From Cyanidioschyzon merolae (lineage: Eukaryota): a stretch of 64,000 nt of DNA. The notes beneath the pieces are model-generated. The model was given only the letters and a program-made list of their open reading frames with translations. It was not told the origin of the DNA and did no database searches. The DNA is taken from NCBI GenBank assembly GCA_000091205.1, contig AP006490.2; one strand, given 5' to 3'. This document shows, one piece after another, positions 1,607 through 60,720 of this stretch; position 1 is the first letter of the stretch, and each line of letters starts with the position of its first letter. A program made the translations under genes and the position numbers.

Positions 1607-2586
1607 AATGGCAACACAGGCGTACCAAAAATGCTTACCGACGAGCACGGTCAGTCGGGTCGCGCGCTTCACCAAGGACAATGCGCAGCTAGCGCAACTC
1701 CCAAAACCGCACCAGACGCAGCGAAAGCTAAAGGAGTATCGTTGCCGTTCAAGAAGCTCGAGATGCTCCTTCTGTGTATCCAAGTTTTCAGCGCAGCCGC
1801 AACCTCGTCACAAACGGTACTCGATTCAGAGCGCAAAGACGCAGATTGCCATAGTACTTGAGCGCTCGTAAACCTGCCTGCTTTACGAGCCTACAACGAA
1901 CGCACATGGAATAGCCTTGAGCATGCCGCCTCCAGCGCTGTGGTGAAGAGCCCGATACGCGGTAGCGACTCCGATCGATGGACGCACACTGCTAGTCTAC
2001 AGCATCCAGCCAGGTTAGCTGAATCGATTGCTTGATCTACTGATTGACCGATTGATTGATTCTGTACGCCCGTCCGGAATACTCATGCGGCGCTGGTGGA
2101 ATCTAGAAGCGTCCGCAGACCAAAAGACGATGCTTTGACCGGTTCAGGAGCACGCGCATCTCGCGGGAATTCTGGGTATTTCCATCCATACGGTACCGTT
2201 CGAAAAACGCATCTATGCGGTGATTCTCAATGGTGCACGATCCAAACATATTTGTTGAGACTGCCGCGAGCGCTTGCAGTGCTTTCGAGAGCCTCGAAAG
2301 ACACCAGCGTAACTCGATAGGAAGAAAGCTGCGTTCGACAAACATCAGCCGGCATTCCCGCTGCGAAACTAGGTTCGCTCGATCCAGCTGCCTTTCTGGT
2401 GTCGAGCACGACGCAGGCGCTTGTCCCAGCACCGGATGCACTGTTGCCATAGTCGCGCTATGCAACTAGGACGTTGTTTCGGTACCGTAGAGGGGGTGTC
2501 GGGTCGCGGATCCAGGGGCGATACCCCTGTTTGGAATACCCCACCACGAAGCCGGTGCTGTCGTCGGGTATCCCCACAGGACACCC

Positions 2587-3450
2587 TTAGTTCAGCGGGA
2601 GCAGCGAGGCACGCAACTTCTCGATGTACGCCTGTGGACGTGGAACGTAGCCTGCACGGTGCTGCTCTACTGCTGCCAAATACTCAGAAAGAGGCATCCA
2701 TCGAACCTGCTCCACCTCTTCTTTTTGAAGGAGAAAAGTGTGCGACGTCGCTGACGTGCCGAGCGCATCGGCTTCATCGGCGTTGGCGGTGGCGGTAGCG
2801 GCCCCTGGGATGCACACAACGTAAACGCTCTGAACCTCGCGGTCCCGGAGGTGATCGTCGACGTACTCGCTCCGTACAGTAAACAAGAGTTCCGGCTCGA
2901 CGCTCCCAATACCGAGTTCTTCTTCGAGTTCCCGCTTAGCAGCTGTCGAGAGGTCGTGTTCGCCACTATGCAAGTGCCCAGCAGCAGACACATCCCAACA
3001 GAGCGGGTGCGTATCCTTAGCCGCACTTCGGAGCTGGAGGAGCACTGCATCAGACGCGGGGTCGTACAACCATACGTGCACCGCGCGATGCCAGTCGCCG
3101 TCCCGATGAACCTCGTGCCGCAACTTTTTCCCGACAATTGTATGCAAGTCAGTCTGGTCGAGAACATCGAACCACTCGGGCTTGCTGGTACCTCTATGAC
3201 GTATGTCGGTGTAGTGGCCGCGTAAGCCGCGAGCACCGCACGAGCGCTGCACGCGGTAAAAGCCACGCCACGACAAACCTGACAGCAAACCGCACCTTGC
3301 AGGAAGACTCGCCGGACCTGAAACACCGACACCCGACAGCTGCACAAAACCTGCTTGCATAAAAGCGGATCGGAAACCAAAACCCGGAGCTCGTTCCAGG
3401 CCAAACAAGCGCTCAGTTCCACAGTAGGGCAGTTGCAGCAACGCCAGCAC
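2587..3450 (-). CDS. Nudix hydrolase family protein; true start is probably an internal Met
   Basis: Nudix box G-x5-E-x7-REUxEExGU is visible as 'GHLHSGEHDLSTAAKRELEEELGI'. The ORF is 287 aa. Confidence 0.72.
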   Translation of the reverse strand: MLALLQLPYCGTERLFGLERAPGFGFRSAFMQAGFVQLSGVGVSGPASLPARCGLLSGLSWRGFYRVQRSCGARGLRGHYTDIRHRGTSKPEWFDVLDQTDLHTIVGKKLRHEVHRDGDWHRAVHVWLYDPASDAVLLQLRSAAKDTHPLCWDVSAAGHLHSGEHDLSTAAKRELEEELGIGSVEPELLFTVRSEYVDDHLRDREVQSVYVVCIPGAATATANADEADALGTSATSHTFLLQKEEVEQVRWMPLSEYLAAVEQHRAGYVPRPQAYIEKLRASLLPLN

Positions 3451-12495: not shown

Positions 12496-13199
12496 GTGGT
12501 CGTTTTTCTGCGGCAGTGAACACGTTGCCTAGTCTTCCGGAAAGTCTGAAGCCAACTGGAAAACGCTGCGTTGCTGCACTACTGCAGCGAGTCCTGTTTG
12601 AGAGCACGGGCCTGTGCTGGGTGTTGTTGTGGCTGCGCAAGGTGTCAGTGCCGGGTGTTGTTGTGTGATGCTTTCCGCGAAGAGGCGATGCAGAGCGCTG
12701 TAACTTGGGCTATTATGAGTCCAGAACCAGGGTCGTCACGCTAGAGCTTTCTTTGGAACAAGTCAGTTCCAAGATTGTACAGTATGATGTGCGGAACAGC
12801 GCTGCTGCGCGCGTTGTAACCTGTTCAACTTCTTTTCCAGAAACGCAGTGTTGAACGTGCGTGAAGAGTTTTGGGCTTCGATGAGCCTTGCTTGCGCTGC
12901 ACTAGTTCTGGTGCTACGATTGAAACCGGACCGGGTACAATACTCTATGCCAAAGGCGGCTCGGAACCGAGACTTGACCACAGCATAGCGAGCCCTCGAG
13001 GCCTTTTGCGGGTACGCGCTTGCCGCTTCTTGCGGACCGGGCCAACGCAACGCTTGCACGTGCAAACGTACCGTTGTGTTTCGTGACGTGACGTCGTCGC
13101 AGGAAAGAAACTCGAATCCCAGACTCGGGTGCGTACCGTTTCGGCGATATGGATACGAGGGCGTGTAGTCTTTCAACCCGAGTGCGATTCACCCCCAGG

Positions 13200-13725
13200 T
13201 GCATGATTTCAAATGCTTTTTCGCGGTTTATAGCAGATGCGTTCCAAGTGCGTGCATTTTGAAGAAATAATTATCTAATGAAAAGGCATGGAGATGGAAG
13301 GCGGGGGATCCTAGAGGGCCGGTGTCATCGGGGGCCGGAAAAGTAACGAAAAGAAATCCACTTCTCGCCGGCCAACGAGCGACAAAGAGCAAGGAATGAA
13401 GAAGAAGAAAGAGAAGCGGCGCGAGAGACGGGAATGTATTGGTACACAGGGCACGAGGTCCCGGCATCCTTGTAATGGTGCGTTCCATCAGCGGCAAGAA
13501 ACGGATGGAGTTCGTGAACCAAGACTTCAACGCAGTCATCAAAATCAGACGGTGTGCAGTGCTGAAGAGAAGAGACTCGAGGAACTGACGCAATCCAATT
13601 TTGCGGGGTTACCTTTCAGAGTCGAAGTGTACAACGAGAAACTCAAGCCGATAGCAGCCGGCCGGTCAAACAAGACTGGGAGGCGTCTGCGGGTGCGTAT
13701 GTGTATATACCCTCCATGGTCGTGA
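13200..13725 (+). mobile_element. Internally deleted (MITE-like) derivative of the TnpB/Fanzor-like element: about 250 bp of the 5' region fused to about 270 bp of the 3' terminus
   Basis: 13205-13290 'gctttttcgcggtttatagcagatgcgtt...' matches the copy at 27600-27700 ('gctttttcgcggtttagagcagagacgtt...'), with weaker homology to about 13450. 13455-13720 then encodes '...MEFVNQDFNAVIKIRRCAVL...VEVYNEKLKPIAAGRSNKTGRRLRV'. This matches the element C-terminus and its 'ggccggtc...gggaggcgtctgc' 3' module. Confidence 0.6.
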
Positions 13726-22821: not shown

Positions 22822-23351
22822 AACATTCATGTGATATCGATTGCATAAATTGGATATAAAGGCTTGTTGGCGTCCGCTCCCACGCGCAGTTGGACAATCA
22901 TGACTTTAGCGTATATTTATGTATTAAACGGACACACTTCTCTGCATTCCGTTTTGCGGCTCTCCGCATGGGTGTCGATCACGGCTAGGCGAGCCCATTC
23001 CGAGCAACTAGGCGTCAATCGCTGGCGCTGCGACCCACGGACTGATAGGACGCGCTTTAGACAGAATGGCCCATTGTCTTGCTCCTAGCGCGCTGCGTGC
23101 CGCGTCTCCATACGCGTCGGACTCGTCGCGGCAACGTTGCGAAGACCCGTCGCCTCCGCGGCTGTTCGTTTTGTACACGGCAGAGCGGCGACTCGGTCCT
23201 GGACCATGCGCGTGATGCCTGTCGTCGCCCCGCAAAACGGCTGTCTCTCTAAGCGCTACACGTTTGCGCATTGTTTGCGTGTCGGCATGACGCGCAACTG
23301 GCAGAACAGCGCCGTATAGCACTCGCACAGACGCGAGCGTGGACAGAAAAG

Positions 23352-23422
23352 CAGGTACAGGCATAGGTACAGGCATAGGTACAGGCATAGGTACAGGCAT
23401 AGGTACAGGCATAGGTACAGGT
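23352..23422. repeat. 12-bp minisatellite (GTACAGGCATAG)n, about 6 units. The homologous site in the other palindrome arm (about 27105-27125) has about 2 units.
   Basis: 'gtacaggcataggtacaggcatag...' run. It generates the (PMPV)n and (YACT)n artefact ORFs. Confidence 0.9.
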
Positions 23423-23620
23423 GTGGGCTCCAGGTCGGCCCCGGAGAAGGAAGCGTGTGCAAGTACCATGGCGGCTAAAAATCGTTCGCAAAATATCACT
23501 TTATAGGCATCGAGGCTACGCATCAACGCACGGACGATCACTCACTCGCTTTCCATAGGTCGTATCCTTCCTCCATTGCATCCGGTCTTCCTTACATCAA
23601 GGCTTTCACCGCTCTCCGCT

Positions 23621-23914
23621 TTAGTTCCCCTGGAACTTTTCCTTGGTGGCATCTGCTGCGTGCTCTATTCCTTTCTTCGCAGACTGACCGGTTTCCTTCA
23701 GGTGATCCACTGCATCACCCGCCTTGTCTTGAGCTTTCTCCTGTGCGGACTTTTGCCCGGTGAGATCACGGAACTTGTCAGAGATCGTCTCCTTCGCCGA
23801 TGAAAACGCACCAGTGACAGACTCTTTCGCAGAATCCAAAGCGCCACCCGCTTTCTTCTCCGTATCTTTGAGAGCCGACTGTGCTGAGCTTGTATCTTGA
23901 GCTCCGGAAGACAT
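23621..23914 (-). CDS. Small hydrophilic stress-protein-like gene, copy A (97 aa; CsbD/LEA/Con-6-like, K/E/A/Q/G-rich)
   Basis: 'MSSGAQDTSSAQSALKDTEKKAGGALDSAKESVTGAFSSAKETISDKFRDLTGQKSAQEKAQDKAGDAVDHLKETGQSAKKGIEHAADATKEKFQGN*'. The paralog in the other arm has the same length and about 75% aa identity. The listed ORF 23621..24934 is a chance read-through from the upstream element. Confidence 0.6.
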   Translation of the reverse strand: MSSGAQDTSSAQSALKDTEKKAGGALDSAKESVTGAFSSAKETISDKFRDLTGQKSAQEKAQDKAGDAVDHLKETGQSAKKGIEHAADATKEKFQGN

Positions 23915-24040
23915 ATCACAATTTATAATGCTTTCGTAAACTCGAAAAATGCATATGCAAATGAGGTACCACGGCGCGCGCGGTGGCCGCACAGCCACAA
24001 ACACAGGAGATTTTACCGCAACAGGACCCGCACGCACCGC

Positions 24041-25320
24041 AGTTTGAAAGTCGAACGACGGCGGTGTACAGTAGCGGCGAACGATGCGCCCTAGACGACG
24101 TCTCCAACTGAGGTGCAGACGCCTCCCGGCCTTTTTGGACCGGCCACCCGCTACTGCTTCCAACTTTTTCTCAAATAATTCCACTTTGGGAGGTTGTCCA
24201 ATAACGTTCTCTCGTGGCAACTCTGGAGGTCTGCTCTCGAGCACCGCACATGTCGTTATCTTGATAGCGGCGTTAAAGTCTCGGTTCACAAACTCCATAC
24301 GTTCCGTGCCATCATTGGTTGTACTTACTAATGCAAGCAGTCCCCGAACTTTCGCCCTCCTTTCCATTTGCGCTTCCGTCAGCGGTCCGTACTTTGCTAT
24401 TCCCTCAGGGCTGCTCCGACACTTTTCTATCTCGACACTTTGAAGTGTACACCCCAGTTCATGGTGTGTATACGATGTTCGGAACTCATCTATCGATATC
24501 GTAACAAAACGTCGTGCACACTCTATGTACGTTCTCGTCGTTAGAGCTGGTGTACACCTTTTTTGGGTCTTCCAGCGCCCTGATCCGTACGCTACTACCA
24601 GCCTTTGGCTCTCGTCCTCCTTCAGGGCGTTCAACTCATTGAAAAAGTTCGCGAGCACGCGCTGCCTCCCACCGTATAGACTCATTCGCAGACGAGCCCA
24701 CCGGGGCTTTGTATACTCCTCCCGTAGCGCCTCCCGATGAGGAACACGAACTTCCATGACTTTCCGAGAAGCTTGAAAGTGTGCTCCGCGGCCCGTCACC
24801 TCGCTCAAAGCTTCCAGGTGATCCTTCATTCCTGCATCCCATGCAGGAATTTTCTTCCTCGCATTCATGACTCCCGATTCTCGATAGTATCTTGCTCTCG
24901 GGAACCTCAAAAGACGCATGTCTTTCTGACGCAAGGAACCGTCAGTACTATCTTCCGCACGCTACGCTGCGCGATGGTTATGATACTCGTATTCTCAGGG
25001 TCCGCGCCAACGACAAAGCCGTTATCTTGCACTTTCTGCACCGCAGGATCCGCCTCCTTCTCATCTTCATGCTGCACCACGTCAACGACAAAGTCGTTAT
25101 CCTGCACTTTCTGCGTCGCGGTACCCGCCTCCTTCTCATCTTCTTGCTGCGCCACGTCAACGACAAAGTAGTTATCCTGCACTTCCTGTGTGGCAGGATC
25201 CGCCTCTTTGTTTTCTGCATCCTTCGTCACGGGCGGAGCCGAGGGCGGAACTGGCCGATCTGTCTTCAACCGCCGATAGTGTACACACAAGGCTACTCCA
25301 TCGGTTTCGATCATCCCAGT
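24041..25320 (-). mobile_element. TnpB/Fanzor-like element, copy 1. The 3' about 1.3 kb is present; the 5' end is truncated at the palindrome centre. It carries a frameshift shared with copy 3 and has lost its stop codon (TGA to TGT).
   Basis: ORFs 24907..25326 (- '...VGADPENTSIITIA') and 23621..24934 (- 'MRQKDMRLLRF...MEFVNRDFNAAIKITTCAVLE...GRSKKAGRRLHLSWRRRLGRIVRRY'). About 98% identical to the 3' half of the 27.4-30.1 kb copy. Confidence 0.8.
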
Positions 25321-25372
25321 GAACAACTTTTGTTTGCTGACTTTGAGCCGTTCGAAACTGAAGATATTCTTC

Positions 25373-26572
25373 GTTGGGATGATCGAAACCGATGGAGCAG
25401 CCTTGTGTGTACACTATCGGCGGTTTCAGGCGGATCATCCAGCTCCGTCTTCGACTTCGCCGGGACGGAGCATGAAGCGAAGAAAGAGGCGGATCGTGCC
25501 ACGCAGAAAGTGCAGGATAAAGAATTTCCCATTGACGCTACGAAGCATGAAGATGAGATGGAGGCGGATACCGCGACGCAGGAGATGCAGGATAACGACT
25601 TTGTCGTTGGCGCGGACCCTTGGAACACGAATATCATTGGCATGGCTGTACCCAAGCGTGCGGAAGATGGTATCAACGACAGCCCATTTCAGAGAGACAT
25701 GCGTCTGTTGAGATTCTCGAGAGCAAGATACTACCTAGAATTGGGAATCATGAATGCAAGGAAGGAAATTGAGGCATGGAATGCGGAAGTGAAAGAGCAT
25801 CAGGAAGCTTTGAGCGAGGTGACAAGCCGAGGAGCGGGCTTTCAAGCTTTTCTGAAATTCATGGAAGTTCGCATTGCGCACTGGGATGCATTGTGGGAGG
25901 AGTATACAAAGCCCCGGTGGGCTCGTTTGCAAATGAATCTATACGTTGGGAAGCAGCGGGCCTTCGCGAGTTTTTTCAATCAGTTGAGTGCCCTGAAGGA
26001 GGATGAAAATCAGAGGCTCGTAGTAGCGTATAGAGCAGGGCGCTGGGCGCCCAAGAAAGGCACTACGCCAGCTCCAACGACGGGGGCGTACAAGGAGTGC
26101 GCACGGCGTTTCGTCGCGATACCGATAGATGAGTTCCGTTCGTCCTATACACTCCATGAACTGGGGTGTACACTTCAGAGAGTGGAGATGGAAAAGTGCC
26201 AACGGAGCCCTGAGGAAATAGCAAAGTACGGACCTCTGACGGAAGAGCAAATGGAAAGGAGGGCGAAACTTCGGGGGCTACTTGCATTAGTAAGTACAAC
26301 CAGTGATGGCAAGGAACGTATGGAGTTTTTAAACCGAGACTTTAACGTCGCTATCAATTTAAGGAGATGTGCGGTGCTGGAGACGAGACCTCCAGAGCTG
26401 ACAAGAGAGAACTTTGTTGGACAACCGCCCAAAGTAGAACTATATGAGAAAATATGGAATCAGTAGTAGGTGGCCGGTCCAAAAAGGCTGGGAGGCGTCT
26501 GCACGTCAGTGGGAGATGTTTCGTCTAGGGCGCGTGCTTCGCCACTATTGTACACCGTTGGCGTCGTTCGAG
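25373..26572 (+). mobile_element. TnpB/Fanzor-like element, copy 2. The 3' about 1.2 kb is present; this is an older, more diverged subfamily member and is in-frame through the RuvC-I region.
   Basis: ORF 24892..26466 from '[16 protein letters not shown]' onward reads '...DNDFVVGADPWNTNIIGMA...ERMEFLNRDFNVAINLRRCAVLETRPPELTRENFVGQPPKVELYEK'. About 80% aa identity to other copies. The 3' module 'ggtggccggtccaaaaaggctgggaggcgtctgcacgtcag...gtacaccgttggcgtcgttcga' is present. Confidence 0.75.
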
Positions 26573-26605
26573 TGCGAAAGGTGTTCCCTTAGCGTCGCAG
26601 TGACA

Positions 26606-26899
26606 ATGTCTTCTGGGTCGCAGGATACCTCTTCTGGTCAATCAGTTCTCAAAGATGCCGAGGCGAAGGTAGGCAGTGCATGGGAATCCACGAAGGAGTC
26701 AGTTTCTGAAGCGTTCACTTCGGCCAAGGAGACTATCTCTGACAAGTATCGTGATCTCACCGGCCAAAAGTCCGCGCAGGAGAAAGCCCAAGACAAGGCG
26801 AGCGAGGCGGTGGATCACCTAAAGGAAACCGGTCAGTCCGCGAAGGAGAGTTTGCAGCACGCTGCAGATGCAGCCTCGGAAAAGTTAAAGGACGGCTAA
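26606..26899 (+). CDS. Small hydrophilic stress-protein-like gene, copy B (97 aa)
   Basis: 'MSSGSQDTSSGQSVLKDAEAKVGSAWESTKESVSEAFTSAKETISDKYRDLTGQKSAQEKAQDKASEAVDHLKETGQSAKESLQHAADAASEKLKDG*'. Same length as copy A, intact ORF, and it begins about 35 bp after the copy-2 element terminus. Confidence 0.6.
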   Translation: MSSGSQDTSSGQSVLKDAEAKVGSAWESTKESVSEAFTSAKETISDKYRDLTGQKSAQEKAQDKASEAVDHLKETGQSAKESLQHAADAASEKLKDG

Positions 26900-27703
26900 C
26901 GGAGAGAGCGTAGAAAGACTTGAGTGAAGGATGCACGGAAGTAAAACAGGAAGGATACGACCTATGGACAGCGAGTGAGTGATCGTCCGTGCGTTGATGC
27001 GTAGCCTCGATGCCTATAAAGTGATGTTTTGCGAACGATTTTTAGCCGCCATGGTACTTGCACACGCGTCCCGCTCCGGGGCCGACCCGCAGCCCACACC
27101 TGTACCTATGCCTGTACCTGCTTTCCTGTCCACGCCCGCGTCTGTGTGAGTGCTATACGGCGCTGTTCTGCCAGTTGCGCGTCATGCCGACACCCAAACA
27201 ATGCGCAAACGTATAGCGCTTATAGAGAGATAGTTGTTCCGCGGGGCGAGCGCCCGCAATCGCAGTCGAGGGCACAATCGACTCGATCGCTGCCGCACGG
27301 GGCGCGACGCATCGCACGCTGTGGTGCAGCGCAGCGCGTACCGGCCTCTGGAAGCAAGTTGTGCGCAGCAGCGATCTGAGGCCTTTATCCATCGGTGCAG
27401 CGTCTCGCGCGGTGCACGCATCGCGCTCGGTGAGCGTACCCGGGAGATCAGGCAGATATGAGACACGACGCGCATGTCGCCGCTGAAGGGAAACGCGATC
27501 CTGACCATTCGTTGACGTGTTGTTCTAACGTAAAACTTGTATTTGCATTGGAATCGTAACAGAATATATTGTTTCATCTCAGTCGTGTTTCAACCTTCAA
27601 GTAAAAATACTCGAGCGCTTTTTCGCGGTTTAGAGCAGAGACGTTAATAGTGCGTTCTAAATCAAAAAAAAAAAACTAAAAAAGGAAAGTTCTGGACAGC
27701 GAA

Positions 27704-30068
27704 GTGGAGGACCCTGGAGGGTCAGTATCGCTGGCAGGCGAGAAAAAAGGAGCAAAAGAGCCAAACATAGAAGAACGAGACAAGACGAAGAAGCAGACGG
27801 GGGAGGTCCTACGTCAATGGCTGCAAGAAAGACGACAGTACGACGAGATGGAGGTGAAAACCTGTCTTCTCGGCTATAGCAAGGATTCGTAGAAGAAAAA
27901 ATTGCGAGAGTCCATCAGAAACTGTGACGAGTCGGACTCCATGAGTTTTCGTAAGACTTCTTTAGGAATGATGCATCTAGCGAGGGAGATGTATCGCGAC
28001 GTGACGCACATGGAAACAGTCGATGTTCCAGAAAAATTTTGCAACAGGAACTTTATTCTTCACCTGATGCTTGGTACAGGGGAAACATCGAGGAGAAATG
28101 AGCGGGTTCACGCCCTCCACGAAAACTTCGCGGAATTCCGCTTCGAGGGTACTCGGTACAGAGGTGACTCGAATATTTACATATACGGGGCGATGAAGTA
28201 CCTCACGAATCTGAAGAACCATTTGACAGTGAACCTTGAACGTTTCATGAGACGCTCGGTGTTTGCACTCTACCGGGGCATCTCTCGCACAGGAATACGG
28301 GCGATTACCAATGGCATCACCAACGAGCACCAGAATGAAGATGAAGTCGAATTTGTCGACAAGAAGGCGTCAAACGAGCGCACGAATGAAGCCTCTGTAA
28401 TCCGTGCGGTTATACAAGAGCGCCGTGCAATCTTGGGGTTGGCGGATCCAATAGACAAGATACCAGAGTTGAAAAAAAATATAAGGAAAGACACTATCGC
28501 CTCATCCTGCGATATTTCGTGTTTTTGCACCGAGAGCCCGAACGCAGTGCGCAGATGAAGCCGAGTGAGGAAAAAATATGAAGAGTGGGAGAGACGGAAA
28601 GCTTTCCTAATGGGGAAGCGCTTCAACGTCGTTCCAATGTGCAGCATCAAGTCACATTTTGTGACTGTCGACCCAACGTACGTTACAGCAAATTGAAGGA
28701 GATCTGTCCGGAGTTCAATGTAAGGAAGACAGAGTTCGCCGGTGAAAACCGGGAGACGTACTGGAAGAACATCTTCAATTTCAAACGGCTCAAAGTCAGC
28801 AAACAAAAGTTGTTCACTGGGATGATCGAAACCGATGGAGTAGCCTTGTGTGTACACTATCGGCGGTTGAAGACAGATCGGCCAGTTCCGCCCTCGGCTC
28901 CGCCCGTGACGAAGGATGCAGAAAACAAAGAGGCGGATCCTGCCACACAGGAAGTGCAGGATAACGACCTTGTCTTGACGTGGAGCAGCATGAAGATGAG
29001 AAGGAGGCGGATACCGCGACGCAGAAAGTGCAGGATAACGACTTTGTCGTTGACGTGGTGCAGCATGAAGATGAGAAGGAGGCGGATCCTGCGGTGCAGA
29101 AAGTGCAAGATAACGGCTTTGTTGCTGGCGCGGACCCCGGGAATACGAATATCATCACCATCGCAGCACCGAGGCGTGCGGAAGATGGTACTGACGGTTC
29201 CTTGCGTCAGAAAGACATGGGTCTTTTGAGGTTCCGGAGAGCAAGATACTATCGAGAATCGGGAGTCATGAATGCGAGGAAGAAAATTCCTGCATGGGAT
29301 GCAGGAATGAAGGATCACCTGGAAGCTTTGAGCGAGGTGACGGGCCGCGGAGCACACTTTCAAGCTTCTCGGAAAGTCATGGAAGTTCGTGTTCCTCATC
29401 GGGAGGCGCTACGGGAGGAGTATACAAAGCCCCGGTGGGCTCGTCTGCGAATGAGTCTATACGGTGGGAGGCAGCGCGTGCTCGCGAACTTTTTCAATGA
29501 GTTGAACGCCCTGAAGGAGGACGAGAGCCAAAGGCTGGTAGTAGCGTACGGATCAGGGCGCTGGAAGACCCAAAAAAGGTGTACACCAGCTCTAACGACG
29601 AGAACGTACATAGAGTGTGCACGACGTTTTGTTACGATATCGATAGATGAGTTCCGAACATCGTATACACACCATGAACTGGGGTGTACACTTCAAAGTG
29701 TCGAGATAGAAAAGTGCCAGAGCAGCCCTGAGGGAATAGCAAAGTACGGACCGCTGACGGAAGCGCAAATGGAAAGGAGGGCGAAAGTTCGGGGACTGCT
29801 TGCATTAGTAAGTACAACCAATGATGGCACGGAACGTATGGAGTTTGTGAACCGAGACTTTAACGCCGCTATCAAGATAACGACATGTGCGGTGCTCGAG
29901 AGCAGACCTCCAGAGTTGCCACGAGAGAACGTTATTGGACAACCTCCCAAAGTGGAGTTATTTGAGAAAAAGTTGGAGGCAGTAGCGGGTGGCCGGTCCA
30001 AAAAGGCCGGGAGGCGTCTGCACCTCAGTTGGAGACGTCGTCTAGGGCGCATCGTTCGCCGCTACTGA
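27704..30068 (+). pseudogene. TnpB/Fanzor-like RuvC-family protein gene, disrupted (in-frame stop SKDS*; about 1-bp deletions near 28667 and 28960; a possible 100-nt GT..AG intron at 28530-28629)
   Basis: Reconstructed order: N-terminal '...MYRDVTHMETVDVPEKF...' is followed by a WED-like '...[36 protein letters not shown]'. An acidic 25-aa repeat of about three units precedes 'GADPGNT' (RuvC-I D). Next come '...LVVAYGSGRW' (RuvC-II position, Glu apparently replaced), a degenerate Zn-ribbon 'TSYTHHELGC...C', then 'NRDFNAAIKI' (RuvC-III D). Compare the TnpB consensus RDxNAAxNIxRRG. Confidence 0.7.
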
Positions 30069-30075
30069 ACCACTG
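29930..30075 (+). ncRNA. Candidate omegaRNA-like conserved 3'-terminal module, overlapping the ORF's last about 45 codons and ending at the element terminus
   Basis: A single string is conserved in all copies and in both solo fragments: 'ggtggccggtccaaaaaggccgggaggcgtctgcacctcagttggagacgtcgtctagggcgcatcgttcgccgctactg(tacaccgccgtcgttcgacttt)'. Short hairpins are visible: GGCC...GGCC, GAGG...CCTC, CGTCT...AGACG. By analogy, the TnpB/Fanzor guide RNA scaffold is encoded at the 3' end of the ORF and the right end. Confidence 0.3.
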
Positions 30076-30132
30076 GCGGCAGCGTTTTTCTTTTGAAAAG
30101 CGTTTGCTGCTCGGGGTGCTAGCGTTCCTGAA

Positions 30133-43399: not shown

Positions 43400-43732
43400 T
43401 CGACGGACAACGTACCAGGTTTTTTCGTCGTTCCAAACAGGTTCTGGATCTCGATGTGGTAACGCAATATCTTTGCCAGAATAAATACAGGACGCGTGTC
43501 CACGCAGCGCCTCCAGCTAAACGAAAGCGAGTTCCGGGCCCAGGTGCGTACGCCGCAGACGGACCGGAATCCTTCTACGAGGACTCGAAACTCGCAAGTG
43601 ACTGTTTGATGGAGCTTCTCGGTGATCCGCGGCGGAGTGAGCTCTTCATCGCCTTGACTGCAGCAGCGGAAAGCGGATGGGACTTTGTCGCGCTGGCTGC
43701 GCGATCGGCGAAGCCTGTGCTCACACACCAAC
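43400..43732 (+). pseudogene. Trehalase gene fragment. 43562-43732 is about 95% identical to 49329-49501 of the intact trehalase gene. Upstream there is weaker protein-level similarity ('RVHAAPPAK' vs 'RYHAPAAEG').
   Basis: 'ccggaatccttctacgaggactcgaaact.gcaagtgactgtt.gatgga.cttctcggtgatccgcggcggagtgagctcttcatcgccttgactgcagcagcggaaagcggatgggactt' is shared. The fragment's 'ESGWDFVALAAR' is a degenerate version of the trehalase 'ESGWDFSSRW' motif. It ends about 12 bp before the right end of the 43.7-kb element. Confidence 0.75.
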
Positions 43733-46046
43733 AACGCCGCTCTAAAGTCGAACGACGTCGGGCGTGTACAGTAGTGGCAGCAACCGCGCCCTCGACAAGA
43801 CGTCTCCAACTGACGCGCAGACGCCTCCCCGTCTTATTGGACCGGCCACCGATTACTGCTTCCAACTTTTTCTCATATAGTTCCACTTTGAGAGGTTGCC
43901 GCACAAAATTCTCTCTTGTCAGCGCTGGAGGTCTTCTTTCCAGCACCGCACATCTCCTGATATTGATAGTGGCATTAAAGTCTCGATTCACAAACTCCAT
44001 ACGCCTCTTGCCATCATTGGTTGTACTTACTAGTGCAAGTGGCCCTCACACTTTTGCCCTCCTTTCCATTTGCTCCTCCGTCAGCGGTCTATACTTCTTT
44101 ACATCTTCAGGGCTCCTCTGGCACTTTTCCATCTCGACCCTCTGAAGTGTACAACCCAGCTCGTGGTGTGTATAAGATGTTCGGAACTCATCTATCGGTA
44201 TTGTAACGAAACGCCGTGCGCACTCCTTGTACACCCTCGTCGTTGGAGCTGGCGTAGCTCCTTTCTTGGGCGCTCAGCGCCCTGCTCCGTACGCTACTAC
44301 CAGCCTTTGGCTCTCGTCCTCCTTCAGGGCGTTCAACTCATTGAAAAAGTTCGCGAGCACGCGCTGCCTCCCACCGTATAGACTCATTCGCAGACGAGCC
44401 CGCCGGGGCTTTGTATACTCCTCCCGTAGCGCCTCCCGATGAGGAACACGAACTTCCATGACTTTCCGAGAAGCTTGAAAGTGTGCTCCGCGGCCCGTCA
44501 CCTCGCTCAAAGCTTCCAGGTGATCCTTCATTCCTGCATCCCATGCAGGAATTTTCTTCCTCGCATTCATGACTCCCGATTCTCGATAGTATCTTGCTCT
44601 CGGGAACCTCAAAAGACGCATGTCTTTCTGACGCAAGGAACCGTCAGTACTATCTTCCGCACGCTACGCTGCGCGATGGTTATGATACTCGTATTCTCAG
44701 GGTCCGCGCCAACGACAAAGTCGTTACCCTGCACTTTCTGCGTCGCAGGACCCGCCTCCTTCTCATCTTCCTGCTTCACCGCGTCAACGACAAGATCGTT
44801 ATCCTCCACCTCCTGCGTCGCAGGATCCGCCGCTTTGTTTTCTGCATCCTTCGTCACGGGCGAAGCCGAGAGCGGGACTGAACGATCTTTCTTCAACCGC
44901 CGATAGTGTACACACAAGGCTACTCCATCGGTTTCGATCAACCCAGTGAATACCTTTTGTTTGCTCATTTTGAGCCGTTTGAAATTGAAGATGTTCTTCC
45001 AGTACGTCTCCAGGTTTTCACCGATGAACTCTTCCCTGTTAACATCGAACTCGGGAATGATCTCCCTCATGATGCCATAAAGGATTCTGGAGTCGATAGT
45101 CACAAAATGTGACTTGAAGTTGCACAACGGAACGACACTGAAGCGCTTACCCACTAGGGCAGCCTTCCGTCTCTCCCACTCTTCATTTTTCTCTCACTCA
45201 GCTTCATCTCTGCCTTGCGTTTGAGTTCTCGGTCCAAAATCACGAAATACCGCAGGACGAGGCGATAGTATCTTTCCTTATCTTTTTCAACTCTGATATC
45301 TTTTCTGTTGGATTAACCAACCCCAGTACCGCACGATGCTCTTGTATAACCGCGCGGATGACGGAATCCTCATTCGTGCTCTTGTTTGACGCCTTCTTGT
45401 CGACGACTTCGACCTCATCTTCATGCTTACGATCTTTCGTGATGCCATTGATAATCGCCCATTTTCCATTGCGAGATAGGCTCTGGTAGAGTGCAACCAC
45501 GGCGCGTATCATGAAACGTTCGAGGTTCGCTGTCAAATGGTTTTTCAGATTCGTGAGGTACTTCATCGCCCCATATGTGTAAATATCCCCGTCACCCTTG
45601 TATCGAGTACCATTGAAGCTGTAAAAGGGATGTTTTTCGTGGAGGGCATGCATTCGCTCGTTTTCCCTCCGCGCTTCCCCTGTAACAAGCATCAGCTGAC
45701 GAATAAAGGTCATGTCGAAAAACTCGTCCGGAATTTCGACTGTTTCCATATGCGTCACGTCGCGATACATCTACCTCGCCAAATGCATCAGTCCTGACGA
45801 CGCCTTGACAATACTCTCGGAGTCTGACGCAACACGTTTTTCGATAGCGTCTCGCAACGTTTCCCTGTTGGGATCCTTGATATGTTTAAGAAGACAGCCT
45901 TTAACCACCATCTCGTCGTACAGTTGTCTTTTTTGCCGGCTTCGACGTAGGACCTCACCTTTTGCTTCTTTTTCTCTTCCTTTTCTTCTGGAATCGGCAC
46001 TGTTTTTTGTTTTTTTTTCTGGCAGCCGGCGACACTGGGCCTCCAA
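43575..46046 (-). pseudogene. TnpB/Fanzor-like protein gene of copy 3, disrupted
   Basis: Same domain order as the 27.7-30.1 kb gene. The N-terminal half is about 75% aa identical to that copy and the C-terminal half about 98%. Confidence 0.7.
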
Positions 46047-46345
46047 GATCGTGGACTTGCTTTTTCATATCTTTCCTTTTTTTGTTTTTTTTGAAAAGGA
46101 ACGCTCTTTGGACGCTTGTGGTATATGCTGCGAAAAAACACTTGACTAGACTTGTTTGAAGTTTTAAACAAAAATGAGCTGAAAGACTGTACTTTGCTAC
46201 GAACTGAACGGAAATCCAACTTTTTACAGCTGAACAACACGCTTCTGATCGAGATCACGTTTCCCTTCAACGGCGAGATACATGTCGTGTCTCATGTCTG
46301 CCTGATCTCCCAGGTGCGCTCACCGATCGATGAAGGTCACGTGTC
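43745..46345 (-). mobile_element. TnpB/Fanzor-like element, copy 3. Near full length, minus strand. It carries a nonsense mutation (E to stop before MYRDVTH), the frameshift shared with copy 1, and others.
   Basis: Minus-strand ORF pieces 45771..46046, 45240..45770, 44609..45154, 44274..44636, 44046..44234 (other frame) and 43575..44000. The last reads 'MEFVNRDFNATINIRRCAVLERRPPALTRENFVRQPLKVELYEKKLEAVIGGRSNKTGRRLRVSWRR'. The 3' terminus is '...ctactgtacacgcccgacgtcgttcgacttt'. Confidence 0.8.
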
Positions 46346-48235
46346 CGACACCCCGCCTTGGCACTTGCGTGTTCGCATCGCGCAGCAGCAAAAATCAGGT
46401 GTCCTAAATCGAAAACTCACGTGGAGTAGTCTCGTGCTATAGGCTATGTCGCTGGTGCTGACGCTACTGCCCATCGCATTACCGCCCTGACAGACATGGA
46501 GCTGTTGGGGCCTGGCACGATACCTCTCGACGCTTCTATCAAATGCGTAGCGTTCTCTGCGGCTTACGCTTGTGTGGATAAGATACGCATCACTCTACTC
46601 AATAGGAATTTTGTTAGTTTTATTGATCGTAAACAAACAAGGTACGGTAGGATTCCTGAACACGGATACAAGTTTATTTCCTATGCTTGTAATGCATGCT
46701 GCACGGACGCTGGAATAAGGAACTGACATGAATTTTGCTTCTTTCCGGCGTCATGGGCTGGTACTGATGACCGTTCAAGTCATTTTCCATGCTATCGTCA
46801 TTGCCCAAGTTATGGTGCCTGCTACTGTCTCGGACCCGGTGATCTTGACAGAGGCATAGCACACAGGTAGCGTCCATATCTGCCACGACGTTTGAGCCTT
46901 GCATCTCGCCTGGCACGATCGAGGAACCCGATAAAAGCACATACTGTATTCTTATCTACTCTATAAGATTAGTTTCAAGAGCCTAACCTGTATGTAGTTG
47001 TGCAAGCACCAAACCGTAAACTTATCTGCACCCCCTACGCCCCCCGCCATTCCTTAAGCAAGCGGATGTTCGTTAGCCACCTGCTGATTTTTCCCTTCCA
47101 GTAGTAAAACTGCTCAAGAGACGGATTTTTTCTCTATCCCTTACCGTTCAATGGAAAGAAAACGTTTCACGACCATGTAGGGTAAATTAATATCCAATCA
47201 CAGACGTCTCCTAGCCTTTTCCACCGGCCCCCTGCTATCGGTTGCAGCTTCTCTTTGTACAATTCGACCCTGAGAGGATGTCCCAGAAAGGTGGACCGCG
47301 TCAGCTCCGCCGGTCGCGCCTCCATCACCATTCGTCTTCTGATATTGATGAGGTTTTGTCGAAAACGCTAGTGATAGAGCTGAGGTCAAGAAACGATCCA
47401 TCTTGACTGGCGCTATCAAACGATCGGTACCAGAAGCTGGAGGCTGCAGCCGGCACCAGGTGCTCTGGTGACGGCATGCTGGCCGTGAATAGTGCGCGAC
47501 GAAGCCGCACAGCATGCTACGGTTTCCTAGTACGTAGGTAAAACAAGCGCGTACCCTAAACGTTCATATTCAGGGCGATGACTAGTCGCCGCCACGGTAT
47601 CCTGGGAAAAATATGCGAGTGCACTTTGGTTGCTCGACTATCGAGCACCATCACGAGTATGGGTGCACTTCACTACACGGTTTCCAACGATCATTGAATC
47701 CACCATCATCCAAAAGTGACGAAAAGTCACAAGCGCACCGGCCTCGTACCTCCAAGTCAGGACTTGCCCATCAGCACGCACACAAATTTCGTGACCCGCT
47801 GCGCATTCACCAAACGAAAGGAAGCACGCGTTTCTTCATCCAGGGATAGAGGGTTCCAAATTCCTTCAGAGACTGCCGATGCTTCGCCCGAACCCAGACC
47901 ATCAGCTGCGGTATGCCCACGAGCATAAACCGGATGCCTGCGATTATCTGCGTCATCAATGTAAATCCTGCCCACACCAGTACCTCAAATGTGTGTCGTT
48001 CGGACACGACACAAGCTCGAAAACCAAGCCGTATGGGGCCTGTCGCAAGCGCCAGTGGCACACCAGGTTGCCAAGCTCACAAATGCCAAAGCACACCACG
48101 CCTATCCAAAAAAAGGCGGCAGCGTCAGCAGCGGAAAGCACCAGCTCTATTGATCAAGAAGCGCATCGATGCGCTTCTCGATCGACGAAACGCGAGCTCC
48201 GCGAGACGCATTCGCCATCAGTTGACGTATAGAAC

Positions 48236-50332
48236 GTGTGGTACTATGCAACTGTTCAGTACCGTAACCTGAGCACCATGACATTGAAAGTCATAGAAGC
48301 GTATGTGCATATGGCTTTTCGTCTGGGCGCGTTGGCGCCTGCATTTCCGAGTTCGGTTGTATACTGTGCCGCCAACTGCGCTGAAACTAGTGCCGGCTGT
48401 GAAAAGTCGCTGCTCGCAGTCGTTCAGCGACTCCGCATTTTCGCTGACTCAAAACACTTTGTGGATCTGCCTCTGCTACCTGGGCGAATACCGGAGCGGA
48501 TCATAGAGTACTGGGACGCTGAGTTCGGTCGCCGCGTTGTTGAGGAGCCGCTGGCGGGCCCAGGCGAAGCAACCAGCGGGCTCCGCGAGGCCGAGCGCGA
48601 GCCCCCTGTGCCCACCTTTCGGCTAGCACGTGTCGAGGGACCTGACACCGACTTCGAGGAGGTACGTCGCTTTCTGTTAGAGCACTTTGACTACGCGCCT
48701 GGTGGCGACTTGCTTGCCTGGATCCCGCGGGACTTGCCGCAGTTGGAGCTGGACCCTGAACCTGGAACGACAGCGACTGGTTCGCCACCGTTGCTGCACC
48801 AGATCTGGCGCTGGATGAAAGCACAGGATGTCGATGCGGGAAACTGGCTCATGGATATGGTCGCACGCTGGCGAAAACTCGGTCGCGAGACCTCGCCGAT
48901 GGTGTTCAGAGAACCTGAACGCTTCAGTCTGCTGCCCCTGAAACATCCATTCATCGTGGCTGGTGGTCGATTCCGCGAGTGCTACTACTGGGATACCTAC
49001 TTCATCGTTCGCGGCCTTCTGGTCTGCGGTATGTGGGAGACTGCGCGCTGCTGCGTTGAGAATCTTCTCGATCTGGTAGAGCAGTTCGGCTTTGTGCCCA
49101 ACGGTGCCCGCATCTACTATCTGAATCGTACCCAACCACCACTACTTTCGGATATGGTGCGCTGCATTGCAGAGCATGCACATGCCGGATGGGACGTGAT
49201 GACATTTTTGGGGCGAGCGTTGCCGCTTCTGGAGCGTGAATACAACTTCATGATGGAGCAACGGGCGGTAAAGATGCGCGCAGGGGGAACCCTAAATCGT
49301 TACCATGCGCCCGCAGCCGAAGGACCGCGACCGGAATCCTTCTACGAGGACTCGAAACTTGCAAGTGACTGTTCGATGGAACTTCTCGGTGATCCGCGGC
49401 GGAGTGAGCTCTTCATCGCCTTGACTGCAGCAGCGGAAAGCGGATGGGACTTTTCGTCGCGCTGGCTGCGCGACCGGCGAAGCATGTGCTCCATCCGAAC
49501 GCAGTTGATTATCCCTGTGTGTTTCAACAGTTTCATGCTTCGCATGGAACGCAATCTCGCTTTTCTCTACCAATGGTATATCAGCGGTAGCCGACCGGAA
49601 ACGGAAAAAGGTAGCATTTTCGAACAGCGGTTACCTGGAAATGAGGAGGTCCCCAATGACCCAGTGACAAGAGACTTGCTTGATCGAGTCCAACAGCGGG
49701 TCTCTACGATGCAAAAGTATTTATACGTACCAAGCCGGGATCAATGGATCGACTACGACCTGGAGGCCGATACAACGACCCTGCAAACGGTTGCAGATTG
49801 GCGGCAGACGGTGAGTTCGAGCAACTTTTTCCCGCTCTGGAGCGGCATCCTCGAGCATATCGAATCGGAACAAGCGGCTTCCATCGCGCGTGGCGTGCTC
49901 CAGTCGTTCGAGGAGAGTGGTCTCCTGCAAAACGGAGGCGTTGTTGCAACATTGGTGACCGATTCGGGTCAACAGTGGGATTACCCGAACGCGTGGCCAC
50001 CCGTGCAACTCCTGCTGCACGAAGCGTTTGCGTCGCTAGCGACGCAGTTTTCCGCGAATGAGCAAATCTCCAACCGAGCTCGCGAACTTTCTTTGCAGAT
50101 AGCCATCCGATTTCTGCGTTCTGTATACCAGGGCTGGCTTCGGAGTGGTGATCTTTTCGAGAAGTATCACGCGGAAAAGGTCGGAGAGAGTGGCAACGGC
50201 GGTGAATACGTTCCCCAGGTTGGATTCGGATGGACAATTGGGGTGAGCCTTGCGCTCTTGTCCAGTGTATGGCAGCTTGATCGAAGCCTGCTCGCACAAG
50301 TCTGGCAGAGGGTATCCGATGAAGCCACATAA
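48236..50332 (+). CDS. Trehalase (glycoside hydrolase family 37), about 690 aa; start may be the Met at about 48278
   Basis: Trehalase signature 1 'GGRFRECYYWDTYF' and signature 2 'QWDYPNAWPP' are present, plus 'AESGWDFSSRW'. Confidence 0.92.
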   Translation: MWYYATVQYRNLSTMTLKVIEAYVHMAFRLGALAPAFPSSVVYCAANCAETSAGCEKSLLAVVQRLRIFADSKHFVDLPLLPGRIPERIIEYWDAEFGRRVVEEPLAGPGEATSGLREAEREPPVPTFRLARVEGPDTDFEEVRRFLLEHFDYAPGGDLLAWIPRDLPQLELDPEPGTTATGSPPLLHQIWRWMKAQDVDAGNWLMDMVARWRKLGRETSPMVFREPERFSLLPLKHPFIVAGGRFRECYYWDTYFIVRGLLVCGMWETARCCVENLLDLVEQFGFVPNGARIYYLNRTQPPLLSDMVRCIAEHAHAGWDVMTFLGRALPLLEREYNFMMEQRAVKMRAGGTLNRYHAPAAEGPRPESFYEDSKLASDCSMELLGDPRRSELFIALTAAAESGWDFSSRWLRDRRSMCSIRTQLIIPVCFNSFMLRMERNLAFLYQWYISGSRPETEKGSIFEQRLPGNEEVPNDPVTRDLLDRVQQRVSTMQKYLYVPSRDQWIDYDLEADTTTLQTVADWRQTVSSSNFFPLWSGILEHIESEQAASIARGVLQSFEESGLLQNGGVVATLVTDSGQQWDYPNAWPPVQLLLHEAFASLATQFSANEQISNRARELSLQIAIRFLRSVYQGWLRSGDLFEKYHAEKVGESGNGGEYVPQVGFGWTIGVSLALLSSVWQLDRSLLAQVWQRVSDEAT

Positions 50333-56245: not shown

Positions 56246-58554
56246 GGATTGTCGCCGACTTGCGTCTCCACTTCCGGAAACACACGAACGTCGTCCAGTC
56301 CCGACTTGGACGAAGCGCTCTTTCGAACCGAACGTGATACGTATGAAAGCGCTTTTGAACGGTATCCGGTGCCTGCACTTGCTTCAAGCCACGAACGGAA
56401 GCTGTTTTGGGATGCTTTGCACCCGTTCCGCCACGTCGGGAGATGTAGCTCGCCCAGCGCCACGCTTCTCGACGGGCTGCTTCCCACACGTGTACCCAGC
56501 TGACTGCGTTCGGTATGCTCCAGCATATCCTGGACAGTGGTGAAGCGGGTTCGCCAATGGACCCTGACGGTGAGGTGCGGAACAAGCGACACGCTCTCGG
56601 ATACCAGTGAGCGTCGTGCAGTGGGGAATCCCTGGTCATGGTAAACGATCCTCTATTCTCGGGAAAGATTCTAGCTGGTAGGCATTTAACCATGGCGCTT
56701 GCCATCGATGGGTGCAGTGAGAAAAACATCGAATCCTGCGAGTGAAGTCTTCTTTGCAGGCACGATACGCGTGTTCTGTGCTGAGATGCCCGCGTTTGCT
56801 GGTGCTATGTCCGGTGCTGGACTAGGATTCAACGCTTGGAAGCTCGTTTGGTGAATGAAACGCTCATTCTCGATAGTCAGACTGGAGCGTGATTCACGTG
56901 ACCCAGAGGTCTCCGAAGCACATGAGGGCTCGCTTCCCTGGGTATAGGCAGCGGTTGTATATCCCGGGCATTGCTGGTCAGATTCGTGGATCAATCATCA
57001 AAAGATATCTCGCCTTGACGCTATTTGGAAGCAGTGCTTCGCGCGGCTACCCGCACAGCATCGCGCCTGTGTTTTTGATCGACGGAACCCCCAGAGGAAC
57101 CGACGACGCGCTATTGTACGCGAAAGGTATCGACATAAGTGAAAACGCCCATCATGCCGCATCCGACCTCCAAGTTAAGCTAGTCACTGAACATGCTTCC
57201 CTTCGGAGTGCATGCCCAGTTCATATGTCACTCGGGGTGCTGTGTGCCTGCTGCTGTGCCCGGCAATGCACGGAGAGAAGACGCAGCGGCGGGTAGAATC
57301 GTGTGCATGAGCAATCTCGAAGAAACGAAATGCGCACTAGCAACTCGAGAACCTGGTGTTTGAATGGATATGGTGAGCGATGAAAGGGGAAAACATTCCC
57401 TGTATATTCGACCATTTACGTCTAAGAGGCAGGTCCTGCGAGCCGGATGAGTGTTCTGGGCCAGCGCTTTGTGTGCTTCTGCACTGGCGGGTGCTGAGCC
57501 AATACATGGCTGCTTGTCCGAAACGCATTTCATTCTGGGAATCGTAGCTGGTAAGCTGCGTAGGGGCGTCGCTATGGTCGCAGTGGACTCCTAGCACATC
57601 GCTTCGCGCCTCCACAGGCAGTGCTTCCGTATGCGCAGGATTCAGGCTCCCAGAATGATAATGCATCCCGATTTTGTGACTAGTGAAGCGTGCCTCGAGC
57701 CGACGCTCCCGAGAGTATTTCGAAGCCGTTTCGTCTCCGTACTGAATCCGCACCGGTTGTATGGGCGTTATTGCGGGTGCTCAAGACAGCCTCGGCAGTT
57801 TTTTGTCGCAGGAAATGACCAGAATCTCCGAGAACGAGTATAAATAATCTAACGTGGATGTAGCGTCAAGAATGATCTGCGCGTTCCTGGATGTCACTAT
57901 CCATCGCGGAATCTAGCATCCCTAGTCCATACAAGCATTCTGTCCAATAAACGATAATCTTCGATCAGCGCCGAGTACCCGCCTTGCGGAACCCGCAATA
58001 GCGCCTAATTCGCTGATGCAGGTGCATCATAGAGACAGGACGGCTTTGCCGTACCACAGAGGGCGTCGGCTCAAGCAATGCTTCACCTGAAACGGAGTCG
58101 GAGTACCTGATCATTCTGGGAGCCTCCAAATTGTACAGACAGACCGACTGCCTGCGGCAGCGCGAGGCGATGTATACTAGGAGAGCACCACGACCAGGAC
58201 GACGTCGAGACGGATTCTCCCCAATGCGAGCCCCAGAATATACTGCGTATCGGAGAGTCTGCTCAGATTTCACTACAACACCAGGCACTGGTGGCGGAGG
58301 CACATGAAGCACAAGTCTAGCAGAAACGTGCGGCTCGCGGCAACTTCCACCTAGACGGTAATCGTTCACCAATATGAAAACCTTTACCCCCTTTCAACGC
58401 TTATCATACAAGCCGAACGACATTGTTATCTCGTCACTAGTTAGCGCTTGCCTTCTCTTCTACCATGTATTCGAGCCTGCTTATCGATCCGGATGCTTCT
58501 GTGCTGTAGTAGCGCTGCATCCTTCGTCGCCGCTTCGCGGCGATCCTTCAAGCT

Positions 58555-60489: not shown

Positions 60490-60720
60490 ATAGGGCATCG
60501 AGTTGGCCTCGAAATGCGATCGTGAAAAGTCGTGAGACGTGTCGGCAAACGCTGTGGCGCCAGCGTAGCACGCGTGGTGACGAGAGCGAACCTAGTGGGG
60601 CAACCGCTCCTGATCGAGGTGTGCCAGGAGAAGCTGAAACCGATAGCATGCGGTCGGTCGAAAAACAAAAGGCTGGGAGGCGTCTCCATGTCGGTGCAGA
60701 GACGTGCACTCTATGGGTGT
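60490..60720 (+). mobile_element. Solo 3'-terminal fragment of the TnpB/Fanzor-like element, more diverged, lying 115-345 bp downstream of the CIA30-domain gene stop
   Basis: It encodes '...RANLVGQPLLIEVCQEKLKPIACGRSKNKRLGGVSMSVQRR', matching the element's '...RENVIGQPPKVELFEKKLEAVAGGRSKKAGRRLHLSWRRR'. DNA 'ggtcggtcgaaaaacaaaaggctgggaggcgtctcc' matches the 3' module 'ggccggtccaaaaaggccgggaggcgtctgc'. Confidence 0.6.

Follow-up and report, generated by a model that had tools for sequence, protein, structure and literature searches.

A decayed copy of the Fanzor1 element CMe-1A in Cyanidioschyzon merolae and the place of its catalytic glutamate

Positions 44274-44400 of a 64,000-nucleotide stretch of the Cyanidioschyzon merolae genome (contig AP006490.2; the whole of this stretch is called the window below) encode part of a protein related to the transposon nuclease TnpB, in which the RuvC-II strand carries no acidic residue. 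Has the protein lost its catalytic glutamate, or does it carry it elsewhere? A preliminary description of this DNA allowed for both, naming either a nuclease-inactive family, like the TldR regulators or other domesticated TnpB derivatives, or a rearranged catalytic site such as some Fanzor lineages use. We find that the locus is very probably a decayed copy of the known Fanzor1 element CMe-1A, with a D-E-D triad that is retained and includes a relocated glutamate in the motif (I/V)DEFRTS, and with a four-cysteine (C4) zinc site that has been lost; intact members of the family are probably nucleases.

Identity of the element

CMe-1A is the one Fanzor1 family that Bao and Jurka described in C. 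merolae in 2013. By their report there are about 150 copies, with about 80% identity each to a consensus that is about 3 kb long (their table gives 3169 bp); terminal inverted repeats (TIRs) are absent, and some copies still have an intact open reading frame (ORF) (PMC3627910). We took the CMe-1A consensus DNA and the 734-aa CMe-1 protein from the supplement of that paper and placed the DNA on the window by blastn. It matches four copies there, called A to D, at 84-88% identity (single rows of Table 1 range over 83-88%), and copy A holds the interval 44274-44400. The published 734-aa protein consensus carries the motifs RLVVAYGAGRW, VDEFRTSYTHHELGC (VDEFRTSYTHHELGCTLQRVEMEKC) and NRDFNAAINI. 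Since these are identical to the motifs that drew attention to the locus, the object belongs to a family that already has a name, and on this nucleotide and motif evidence the element holding 44274-44400 is a decayed copy of CMe-1A.

Comparison with solved structures also points to Fanzor1. Single-sequence searches, of Pfam and by phmmer of the PDB sequences, gave no match. A database search found 76 homologues down to 23% identity, and when 20 of them were aligned as a profile (A1) and this was run against the PDB, only Fanzor1 chains were matched: PpFz1 of Parasitella (9CF0; 1e-22), SpuFz1 of Spizellomyces (8GKH; 1.5e-15) and GtFz1 of Guillardia (9CER; 5e-10). An AlphaFold2 (AF2) model of the 362-aa ORF of copy D (pLDDT 73.6, core above 85) likewise had Fanzor1 structures as its first Foldseek matches. 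For the full-length model (pLDDT 75.6) of P0001, a related and uninterrupted 752-aa ORF on a metagenome contig, Foldseek returned SpuFz1 (E=1e-16, target-normalised TM-score 0.69-0.71), then PpFz1 and GtFz1, and the first match outside the Fanzors was a Cas12 at E=8e-3. Long helices occupy residues 528-608 of this model, between beta-3 and beta-4, in keeping with the long helical hairpin that Fanzor1 structures have between RuvC-I and RuvC-II. CMe-1 is thus predicted to have the same fold as SpuFz1 (8GKH, 9CEU-9CEZ; TM-score 0.7), PpFz1 (9CF0-3) and GtFz1 (9CER-T), at a sequence identity to the solved Fanzor1 proteins of only 13-18%.

The linker just before RuvC-I holds a tandem acidic repeat of 75 nt (25 residues), found at 44704-44852 in copy A, at 28913-29133 in copy D and at about residues 376-475 of P0001. 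It occurs once in the published consensus, twice in copy A, about three times in copy D and four to five times in P0001, and this linker is predicted to be disordered in the AF2 model (pLDDT 25-40).

The RuvC-II strand and the catalytic glutamate

On the minus strand, 44274-44400 encodes a segment ending in ALKEDESQRLVVAYGAGR and a stop codon (NELNALKEDESQRLVVAYGAGR, with RMSLYGGRQRVLANFFNELNALKEDESQRLVVAYGAGR before the stop at 44274-44276). Its RLVVAYG, the canonical RuvC-II strand, is a beta-strand in the AF2 models (residues 185-191 of the 362-aa ORF and 617-623 of P0001). The strand lacks Asp and Glu in all four copies, and the motif is no different in the published CMe-1 consensus; among 195 aligned relatives, acids make up no more than 1% of each of its columns, except for 9% Asp one residue after the Gly. 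The preliminary observation that the RuvC-II Glu is replaced on this strand therefore holds well beyond the window. The accompanying reading, that Ala stands in the place of Glu, does not: in the Fanzor/TnpB alignment of Bao and Jurka the Glu of IS608 TIFIE lies opposite the Gly of CMe-1 VVAYG (PMC3627910), so that the canonical Glu corresponds to Gly, not Ala, and Gly or Pro is what replaces this Glu in Fanzors (PMC10530073, PMC10691335). The 362-aa ORF of copy D carries GADPGNT, VVAYGSGRW, IDEFRTS and NRDFN; copy A stops at the Trp of GRW, and copy C reads DPW, VVAYRAGRW, IDEFRSS, TLHELGC and NRDFN. The absence of the acid is a trait of the family rather than of decay, as had been proposed from copies diverged by about 20%, since copies A and C (81.6% identical in DNA), the consensus and the intact ORF are alike in this respect.

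We then looked at conservation in a set of 221 sequences, made up of the 76 matches and 145 new representatives drawn from 7981 clusters (50% identity, E<=1e-3). Over profile positions 596-662 the sole conserved acidic column is the Glu of (I/V)DEFRTS (Ealt). It lies 33 residues downstream of the canonical RuvC-II position, just after the next beta-strand, and, as the Glu of DEFRTSYT-H, it precedes by 7 positions the residue that faces the first zinc-finger Cys in both the profile and hhalign alignments. In the printed HMMER alignment of the profile with the SpuFz1 MBP-fusion chain (offset 394), from which we read the residue mapping, the Asp of DPG falls on residue 777 (D383), the Glu of vDEFrTS on 935 (E541) and the Asp of nRDlnAA on 1000 (D606). 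In SpuFz1, D383, E541 and D606 coordinate Mg and are catalytic (PMC10432273, PMC11423790). The D-E-D triad is complete in 176 of the 179 relatives that cover all three positions. Around the first Asp, the Pro and the Gly of DPG are kept in 203 and 212, respectively, of 217 relatives, and copy D, the consensus and P0001 all have GADPGNT; at RuvC-III, where the last helix starts, NRDFNAA carries the RD form of the Fanzor1 RD/RN motif (GtFz1 has Asn for the Asp). Copy A has both the Asp of RuvC-I and that of RuvC-III (Table 1), as the preliminary description had recognized.

That description had also suggested looking for a substitute acid upstream, in the KEDE of ALKEDESQ. In the AF2 model of the 362-aa ORF, KEDE forms a loop on the N-terminal side of the RLVVAYG strand. 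We rejected it as an alternative catalytic acid on conservation, as none of its columns is acidic in more than 48% of sequences; the conserved Glu is found on the other side of the strand, in (I/V)DEFRTS (189 of 191). A conserved acid at the canonical RuvC-II position itself, looked for in the profile alignment, was not present there either, which does not imply inactivity.

Judged by these alignments, the placement of Ealt in CMe-1 is the published Fanzor pattern. Yoon et al. (2023) defined Fanzors by DPG together with a Glu (Ealt) six residues upstream of the zinc-finger motif (PMC10711439), and Bao and Jurka had already called a Gly and a Glu "extremely conserved" in Fanzor1 (G500 and E536 in SPu-1 numbering; PMC3627910). 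At the canonical RuvC-II position, all Fanzors and a subset of TnpBs carry Gly or Pro, and they have a conserved alternative Glu about 45-50 residues away (PMC10530073, PMC11832414); the rearranged site anticipated in the preliminary description is thus there, as the state of all Fanzors and of the pro-Fanzor TnpBs rather than of some Fanzor lineages (see also PMC10711439). Altae-Tran et al. reported the same Glu-to-Gly rearrangement in the TnpB clade RIIr-5 (PMC10691335), and ApmFz2 cannot do without the equivalent relocated Glu, since the mutation E467A abolishes its cleavage (PMC10530073). As far as alignment can tell, the apparently missing RuvC-II Glu is the standard Fanzor active-site arrangement and not an inactivation.

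The following scheme would account for the family. The RuvC-II strand ends in a conserved Gly, the catalytic Glu would have moved to (I/V)DEFRTS, and Ealt would join the Asp residues of DPG and RDxN in a D-E-D triad, as in the solved Fanzor1 structures. Intact members would probably be Mg-dependent RNA-guided DNA nucleases that serve maintenance of the element, and their predicted nuclease function would have no need of structural zinc.

Set beside known systems, CMe-1 and the solved Fanzor1 proteins are alike in DPG, in a relocated Glu within (D/P)E(F/Y/H)xTS and in RD/RN at RuvC-III; they differ in that the solved proteins have CCCC at the zinc positions, whereas CMe-1 has H/L/L/R there, a ribbon enlarged by an insertion of about 20 residues and the variable linker of acidic 25-residue repeats. 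Fanzor2 and the pro-Fanzor/TnpB2 proteins (RIIr-5), for example ApmFz2 with E467, share with CMe-1 the Ealt and, where canonical TnpB has its Glu, the Gly or Pro (PMC10530073, PMC11832414, PMC10691335), but they are compact, TnpB-like and IS607-associated and have a zinc finger, whereas CMe-1 has the enlarged REC and REC2 helices of Fanzor1. Canonical TnpBs (IS608, ISDra2) align with CMe-1 over RuvC-I, the zinc-knuckle and RuvC-III with an hhalign probability of 89-97%. In them, however, the Glu ends beta-4 (TIFIEDLN), D-hydrophobic-G stands in place of DPG and the C4 ligands are present, and the three TnpBs compared by hhalign have Arg, Ala or Glu opposite CMe-1 Ealt (the segment IDRFYPSS is a non-acidic example).

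The zinc ribbon and other explanations

The ribbon cysteines had been described as partly replaced by His in all copies. The motifs THHELGC (44151-44171) and EKC (44121-44129) do exist, outside the interval 44274-44400 in which they had been placed, and the C4 site is indeed gone, but only one ligand position is His, and in copy C it is Leu. Profile and hhalign alignment give H, L, L, R at the four Cys positions of copies A, B and D, and L, L, L, R at those of copy C. They put neither the Cys of LGC nor that of EKC at a position equivalent to a ligand; in the 2013 alignment an extra gap brings the LGC Cys level with the second Cys (PMC3627910). An insertion of about 20 residues (EKCQRSPED...TEE) lies within the ribbon.

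Distant members of the family (P0074-76) keep CxxC...C...C and match PF07282. Among 147 non-close relatives, four Cys are present at the zinc positions in 20, three in 13 and two or fewer in 114, and D-E-D is kept in 145 of the 147. Because relatives with few Cys keep the triad, ligand loss is a trait of the clade and is decoupled from the triad, and to judge from these counts the C4 zinc site is lost in the CMe-1 lineage and in most of its closest relatives. As a separate observation, many of the 221 homologues keep only a His at the first zinc position and a Cys at the third (H-T-C-x, H-D-C-x). Exactly one Cys remains in 82 of the non-close relatives, and CMe-1 lacks that Cys too; this His...Cys pair looks vestigial rather than like part of a four-ligand site.

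How far does this loss bear on membership in Fanzor1? Bao and Jurka gave the motif D-X(125,275)-[TS]-[TS]-X-X-[C4 zinc finger]-X(5,50)-RD and called its C4 "strictly conserved" (PMC3627910). CMe-1 has the D, the TS and the RD at the expected spacing and lacks the C4, so the full motif is not present; those authors listed CMe-1 as a Fanzor1 nonetheless (PMC3627910). In the supplement of the same paper, the sequences of CMe-1 and of Volvox VCa-1 and VCa-2 are without CxxC pairs, despite the "strictly conserved" C4. More recent work speaks of a zinc finger in "many", not all, Fanzors (PMC10711439) and of its loss in large TnpB branches that are judged probably active (PMC10691335), and we therefore treat C4 as frequent rather than defining.

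Several points count against an active Fanzor1 family with a relocated Glu. The comparison by hhalign with three TnpBs from the 2013 supplement left the register of beta-4 unsettled: run locally by default, it aligned no more than the region from the zinc-knuckle to RuvC-III, and a forced or global run, which was not used for the register, paired RuvC-I and RuvC-III but matched the beta-4 of TnpB with a helix of Fanzor at low confidence. The Gly assignment accordingly rests on the 2013 alignment and the literature, and the mapping of the triad on profile alignment to solved structures. In place of DPG, copies A and B have DPE and copy C has DPW. No omega RNA signal came from the 3' 216 nt of copy D, either by folding (z=-0.28 versus shuffled sequence) or as an Rfam match, and the 3' end of CMe-1A is no more conserved than the rest by sliding identity; all of these are weak tests for a guide RNA. 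In the literature that we searched there is no report of cleavage biochemistry on CMe-1 or on a Fanzor1 without a zinc finger, and all the Fanzor1 proteins that have been shown to cleave (Spu, Gt and Pp) have CCCC in alignments (PMC10432273).

This last point also speaks for a different explanation, in which the triad is kept and loss of C4, with the insertion of about 20 residues, has altered or crippled the function, leaving not a standard double-strand cutter but a protein that might be a nickase, cut only weakly or do no more than bind RNA. In SpuFz1 the substrate channel is lined by the TNB/zinc-finger domain (PMC11423790), and another algal Fanzor, CrFNuc-1, showed no cleavage in vitro (PMC10530073). 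We consider this outcome unlikely. Retention of D-E-D by the few-Cys relatives, counted in clusters at 50% identity, argues that catalysis is under selection, and the TnpB branches that have lost the zinc finger are judged active (PMC10691335). In addition, the ratio of nonsynonymous to synonymous divergence (dN/dS) in pairwise comparisons of copies A-D and the intact metagenomic 752-aa ORF is 0.22-0.41 (dS up to 0.49; RuvC half), and this measurement takes in the ribbon region. Such values agree with the argument of Bao and Jurka that the copies diverged along protein-coding master lineages.

Could the His and Cys residues of THHELGC...EKC instead make up a replacement zinc site, HHCC or HCC, peculiar to the CMe-1 subfamily? 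Copies A, B and D share the pattern H-H-x3-C-x9-C with the consensus, and in the gapped 2013 alignment the second Cys of the first knuckle faces the Cys of LGC. Within the subfamily, however, conservation of these residues (83-94%) is no better than that of their surroundings (regional mean 84%); the nearest outgroups are without most of them (P0052 has EKR, P0057 THYEKGN and P0077 THAETGQ), copy C has TLHELGC, and the second-knuckle positions (L and R) offer no ligands. A substitute site of this kind thus seems improbable.

A nuclease-dead, domesticated TnpB or Fanzor derivative, which like TldR or Cas12k/Cas12m binds its target without cutting, was one of the two families that the preliminary description had in mind, and the missing Glu on the canonical strand, the lost zinc ligands and the existence of inactivated TnpB branches (PMC10691335) would suit it. 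We give it very little credence. The lack of a Glu at canonical RuvC-II is the only likeness of CMe-1 to TldRs and other inactivated TnpBs, which lose their catalytic residues and are fixed beside host partner genes; the CMe-1 family keeps all three residues that are catalytic in SpuFz1, and shows neither catalytic loss nor a fixed host partner. It is a multicopy mobile element, with its roughly 150 copies in varied contexts (PMC3627910), its dN/dS lies in the range given above, and the four copies in the window are pseudogenes rather than a conserved single-copy host gene. Finally, that the missing Glu and Cys are mere decay in dead copies can be dismissed, even with every copy in the window a pseudogene, as the published consensus, the intact 752-aa ORF and relatives down to 23% identity show the same state.

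Copies in the window and meaning for the family

None of copies A-D can make a full-length protein; all four are pseudogenes. The reading frame of copy A, long but broken, runs on the minus strand from about 45990 down to about 43806, and against the consensus coding sequence it has five frameshifting indels (at 46018, 45958, 45287, 45193 and 44672) and four in-frame stops (first bases 45773, 44666, 44276 and 44048). The third of these stops lies within 44274-44400 (Table 1); the fourth, at 44046-44048 in the ribbon region, is a TGA where the consensus has CGA. Copy D has five frameshifting indels and one stop, and its sole intact stretch is the last 362 codons (ORF 28980-30068), from RuvC-I to the end. 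Introns were considered as a source of these frame changes and rejected: the lesions differ from copy to copy, and the related ORF P0001 is uninterrupted, so the frame changes are decay.

Table 1. Features of CMe-1A copy A around 44274-44400 and the copies of the element in the window (coordinates are window positions)
Feature	Position	Strand	Evidence or remarks
End of long helical hairpin, KEDESQ, beta-strand RLVVAYG, AGR, stop	44274..44400	-	translation
Gly codon at the canonical TnpB RuvC-II Glu position	44286..44288	-	Gly in 190/195 relatives; published alignment
KEDE	44313..44324	-	columns 611-614 acidic in 14-48%, often gapped (221 sequences)
Premature stop TGA; TGG in consensus (Trp574 of CMe-1)	44274..44276	-	within 44274-44400; copies B, C and D read GRW
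Relocated catalytic Glu (Ealt, putative), E of PIDEFRTS	44187..44189	-	Glu in 189/191; aligns to SpuFz1 E541
RuvC-I Asp in GADPENT (DPG to DPE in copy A)	44702..44704	-	Asp in 213/217; aligns to SpuFz1 D383
RuvC-III Asp in NRDFNA	43980..43982	-	Asp in 178/179; aligns to SpuFz1 D606 and to TnpB RD (hhalign)
Degenerate zinc ribbon (TNB), THHELGC...EKC...(~20-aa insert)...KV-stop-GPLALVSTTNDGKRRMEFV	43989..44171	-	hmmalign, hhalign
Copy A of CMe-1A, holds 44274-44400, pseudogene	43764..46319	-	consensus 660-3137, 85-88%
Copy D of CMe-1A	27446..30102	+	consensus 671-3169, 84-87%; N-terminal half broken
Copy B of CMe-1A, 5'-truncated	24061..25372	-	consensus 1976-3140, 85-88%
Copy C of CMe-1A, 5'-truncated, head to head with B	25375..26563	+	consensus 2030-3145, 83-87%
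Older divergent CMe-1A-like fragments, ~74% identical	13163..13690	+	nucleotide comparison

Diverged copies such as A and C differ by about 18-20% in DNA, and over the RuvC half copy B is nearly identical to copy D (dS 0.015). Aligning the element ends in the window gave no evident TIRs, in agreement with the 2013 description. Copies A and D begin at consensus positions 660-671 and are therefore without the 5' portion of about 635 bp, which resembles TE-N2_CMe and was equated with it by Bao and Jurka (PMC3627910); two units may have been combined in the published 3169-bp consensus. Elsewhere in the window, at 57383-57944 (minus strand) and 57968-58444 (plus strand), lie two inverted copies that are TE-N2_CMe-like (73-79% identical). 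Short fragments at 13163-13690, 47161-47351 and 60596-60685 have about 72-75% identity to the 3' part of CMe-1A and may have been left by a Fanzor subfamily that is older or a second one.

Copies B and C lie head to head inside a palindrome (inverted duplication) of about 4 kb at 23244-27228, centred near 25347, with arms that are 82-95% complementary; a small LEA-like gene is duplicated in it, with one copy to either side (ORFs ending near 23621-24100, minus strand, and 26444-26899, plus strand). A direct repeat of 163 bp, with 95.7% identity and unrelated to CMe-1A, occurs just downstream of copy A at 43562-43722 and again at 49329-49491. Of the other proteins encoded in the window, cysteinyl-tRNA synthetase (CysRS) and an EamA-domain protein match C. 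merolae 10D BAM79775.1 and BAM79780.1 exactly, which identifies the host as strain 10D.

The element family has been known since 2013 and the relocated RuvC-II Glu has been a textbook signature of Fanzors since 2023, so in these respects the finding is an ordinary one. The analysis averts annotation of such copies as "nuclease-dead TnpB derivatives", and it corrects the place of the compensating acid, which is the downstream DEFRTS and not the upstream KEDE. Mildly new, by the alignments, is what appears to be a large Fanzor1 clade without a zinc finger in which the triad is kept: the "strictly conserved C4 zinc finger" fails for CMe-1 and most of its closest relatives, while D-E-D holds. It is possible, and we put this forward tentatively, that CMe-1 and its C4-less relatives (the 114 of 147 with at most two Cys, in a family that comprises about 8000 clusters at 50% identity) make up a clade of active, zinc-independent RNA-guided nucleases. 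If this is true, the zinc site of TNB would be dispensable in Fanzor1, and the C. merolae members, which come from a thermoacidophilic host, could be a heat-tolerant, eukaryote-adapted editor scaffold. A Fanzor1 without a zinc finger, if proved active, would also inform on the role of the TNB domain.

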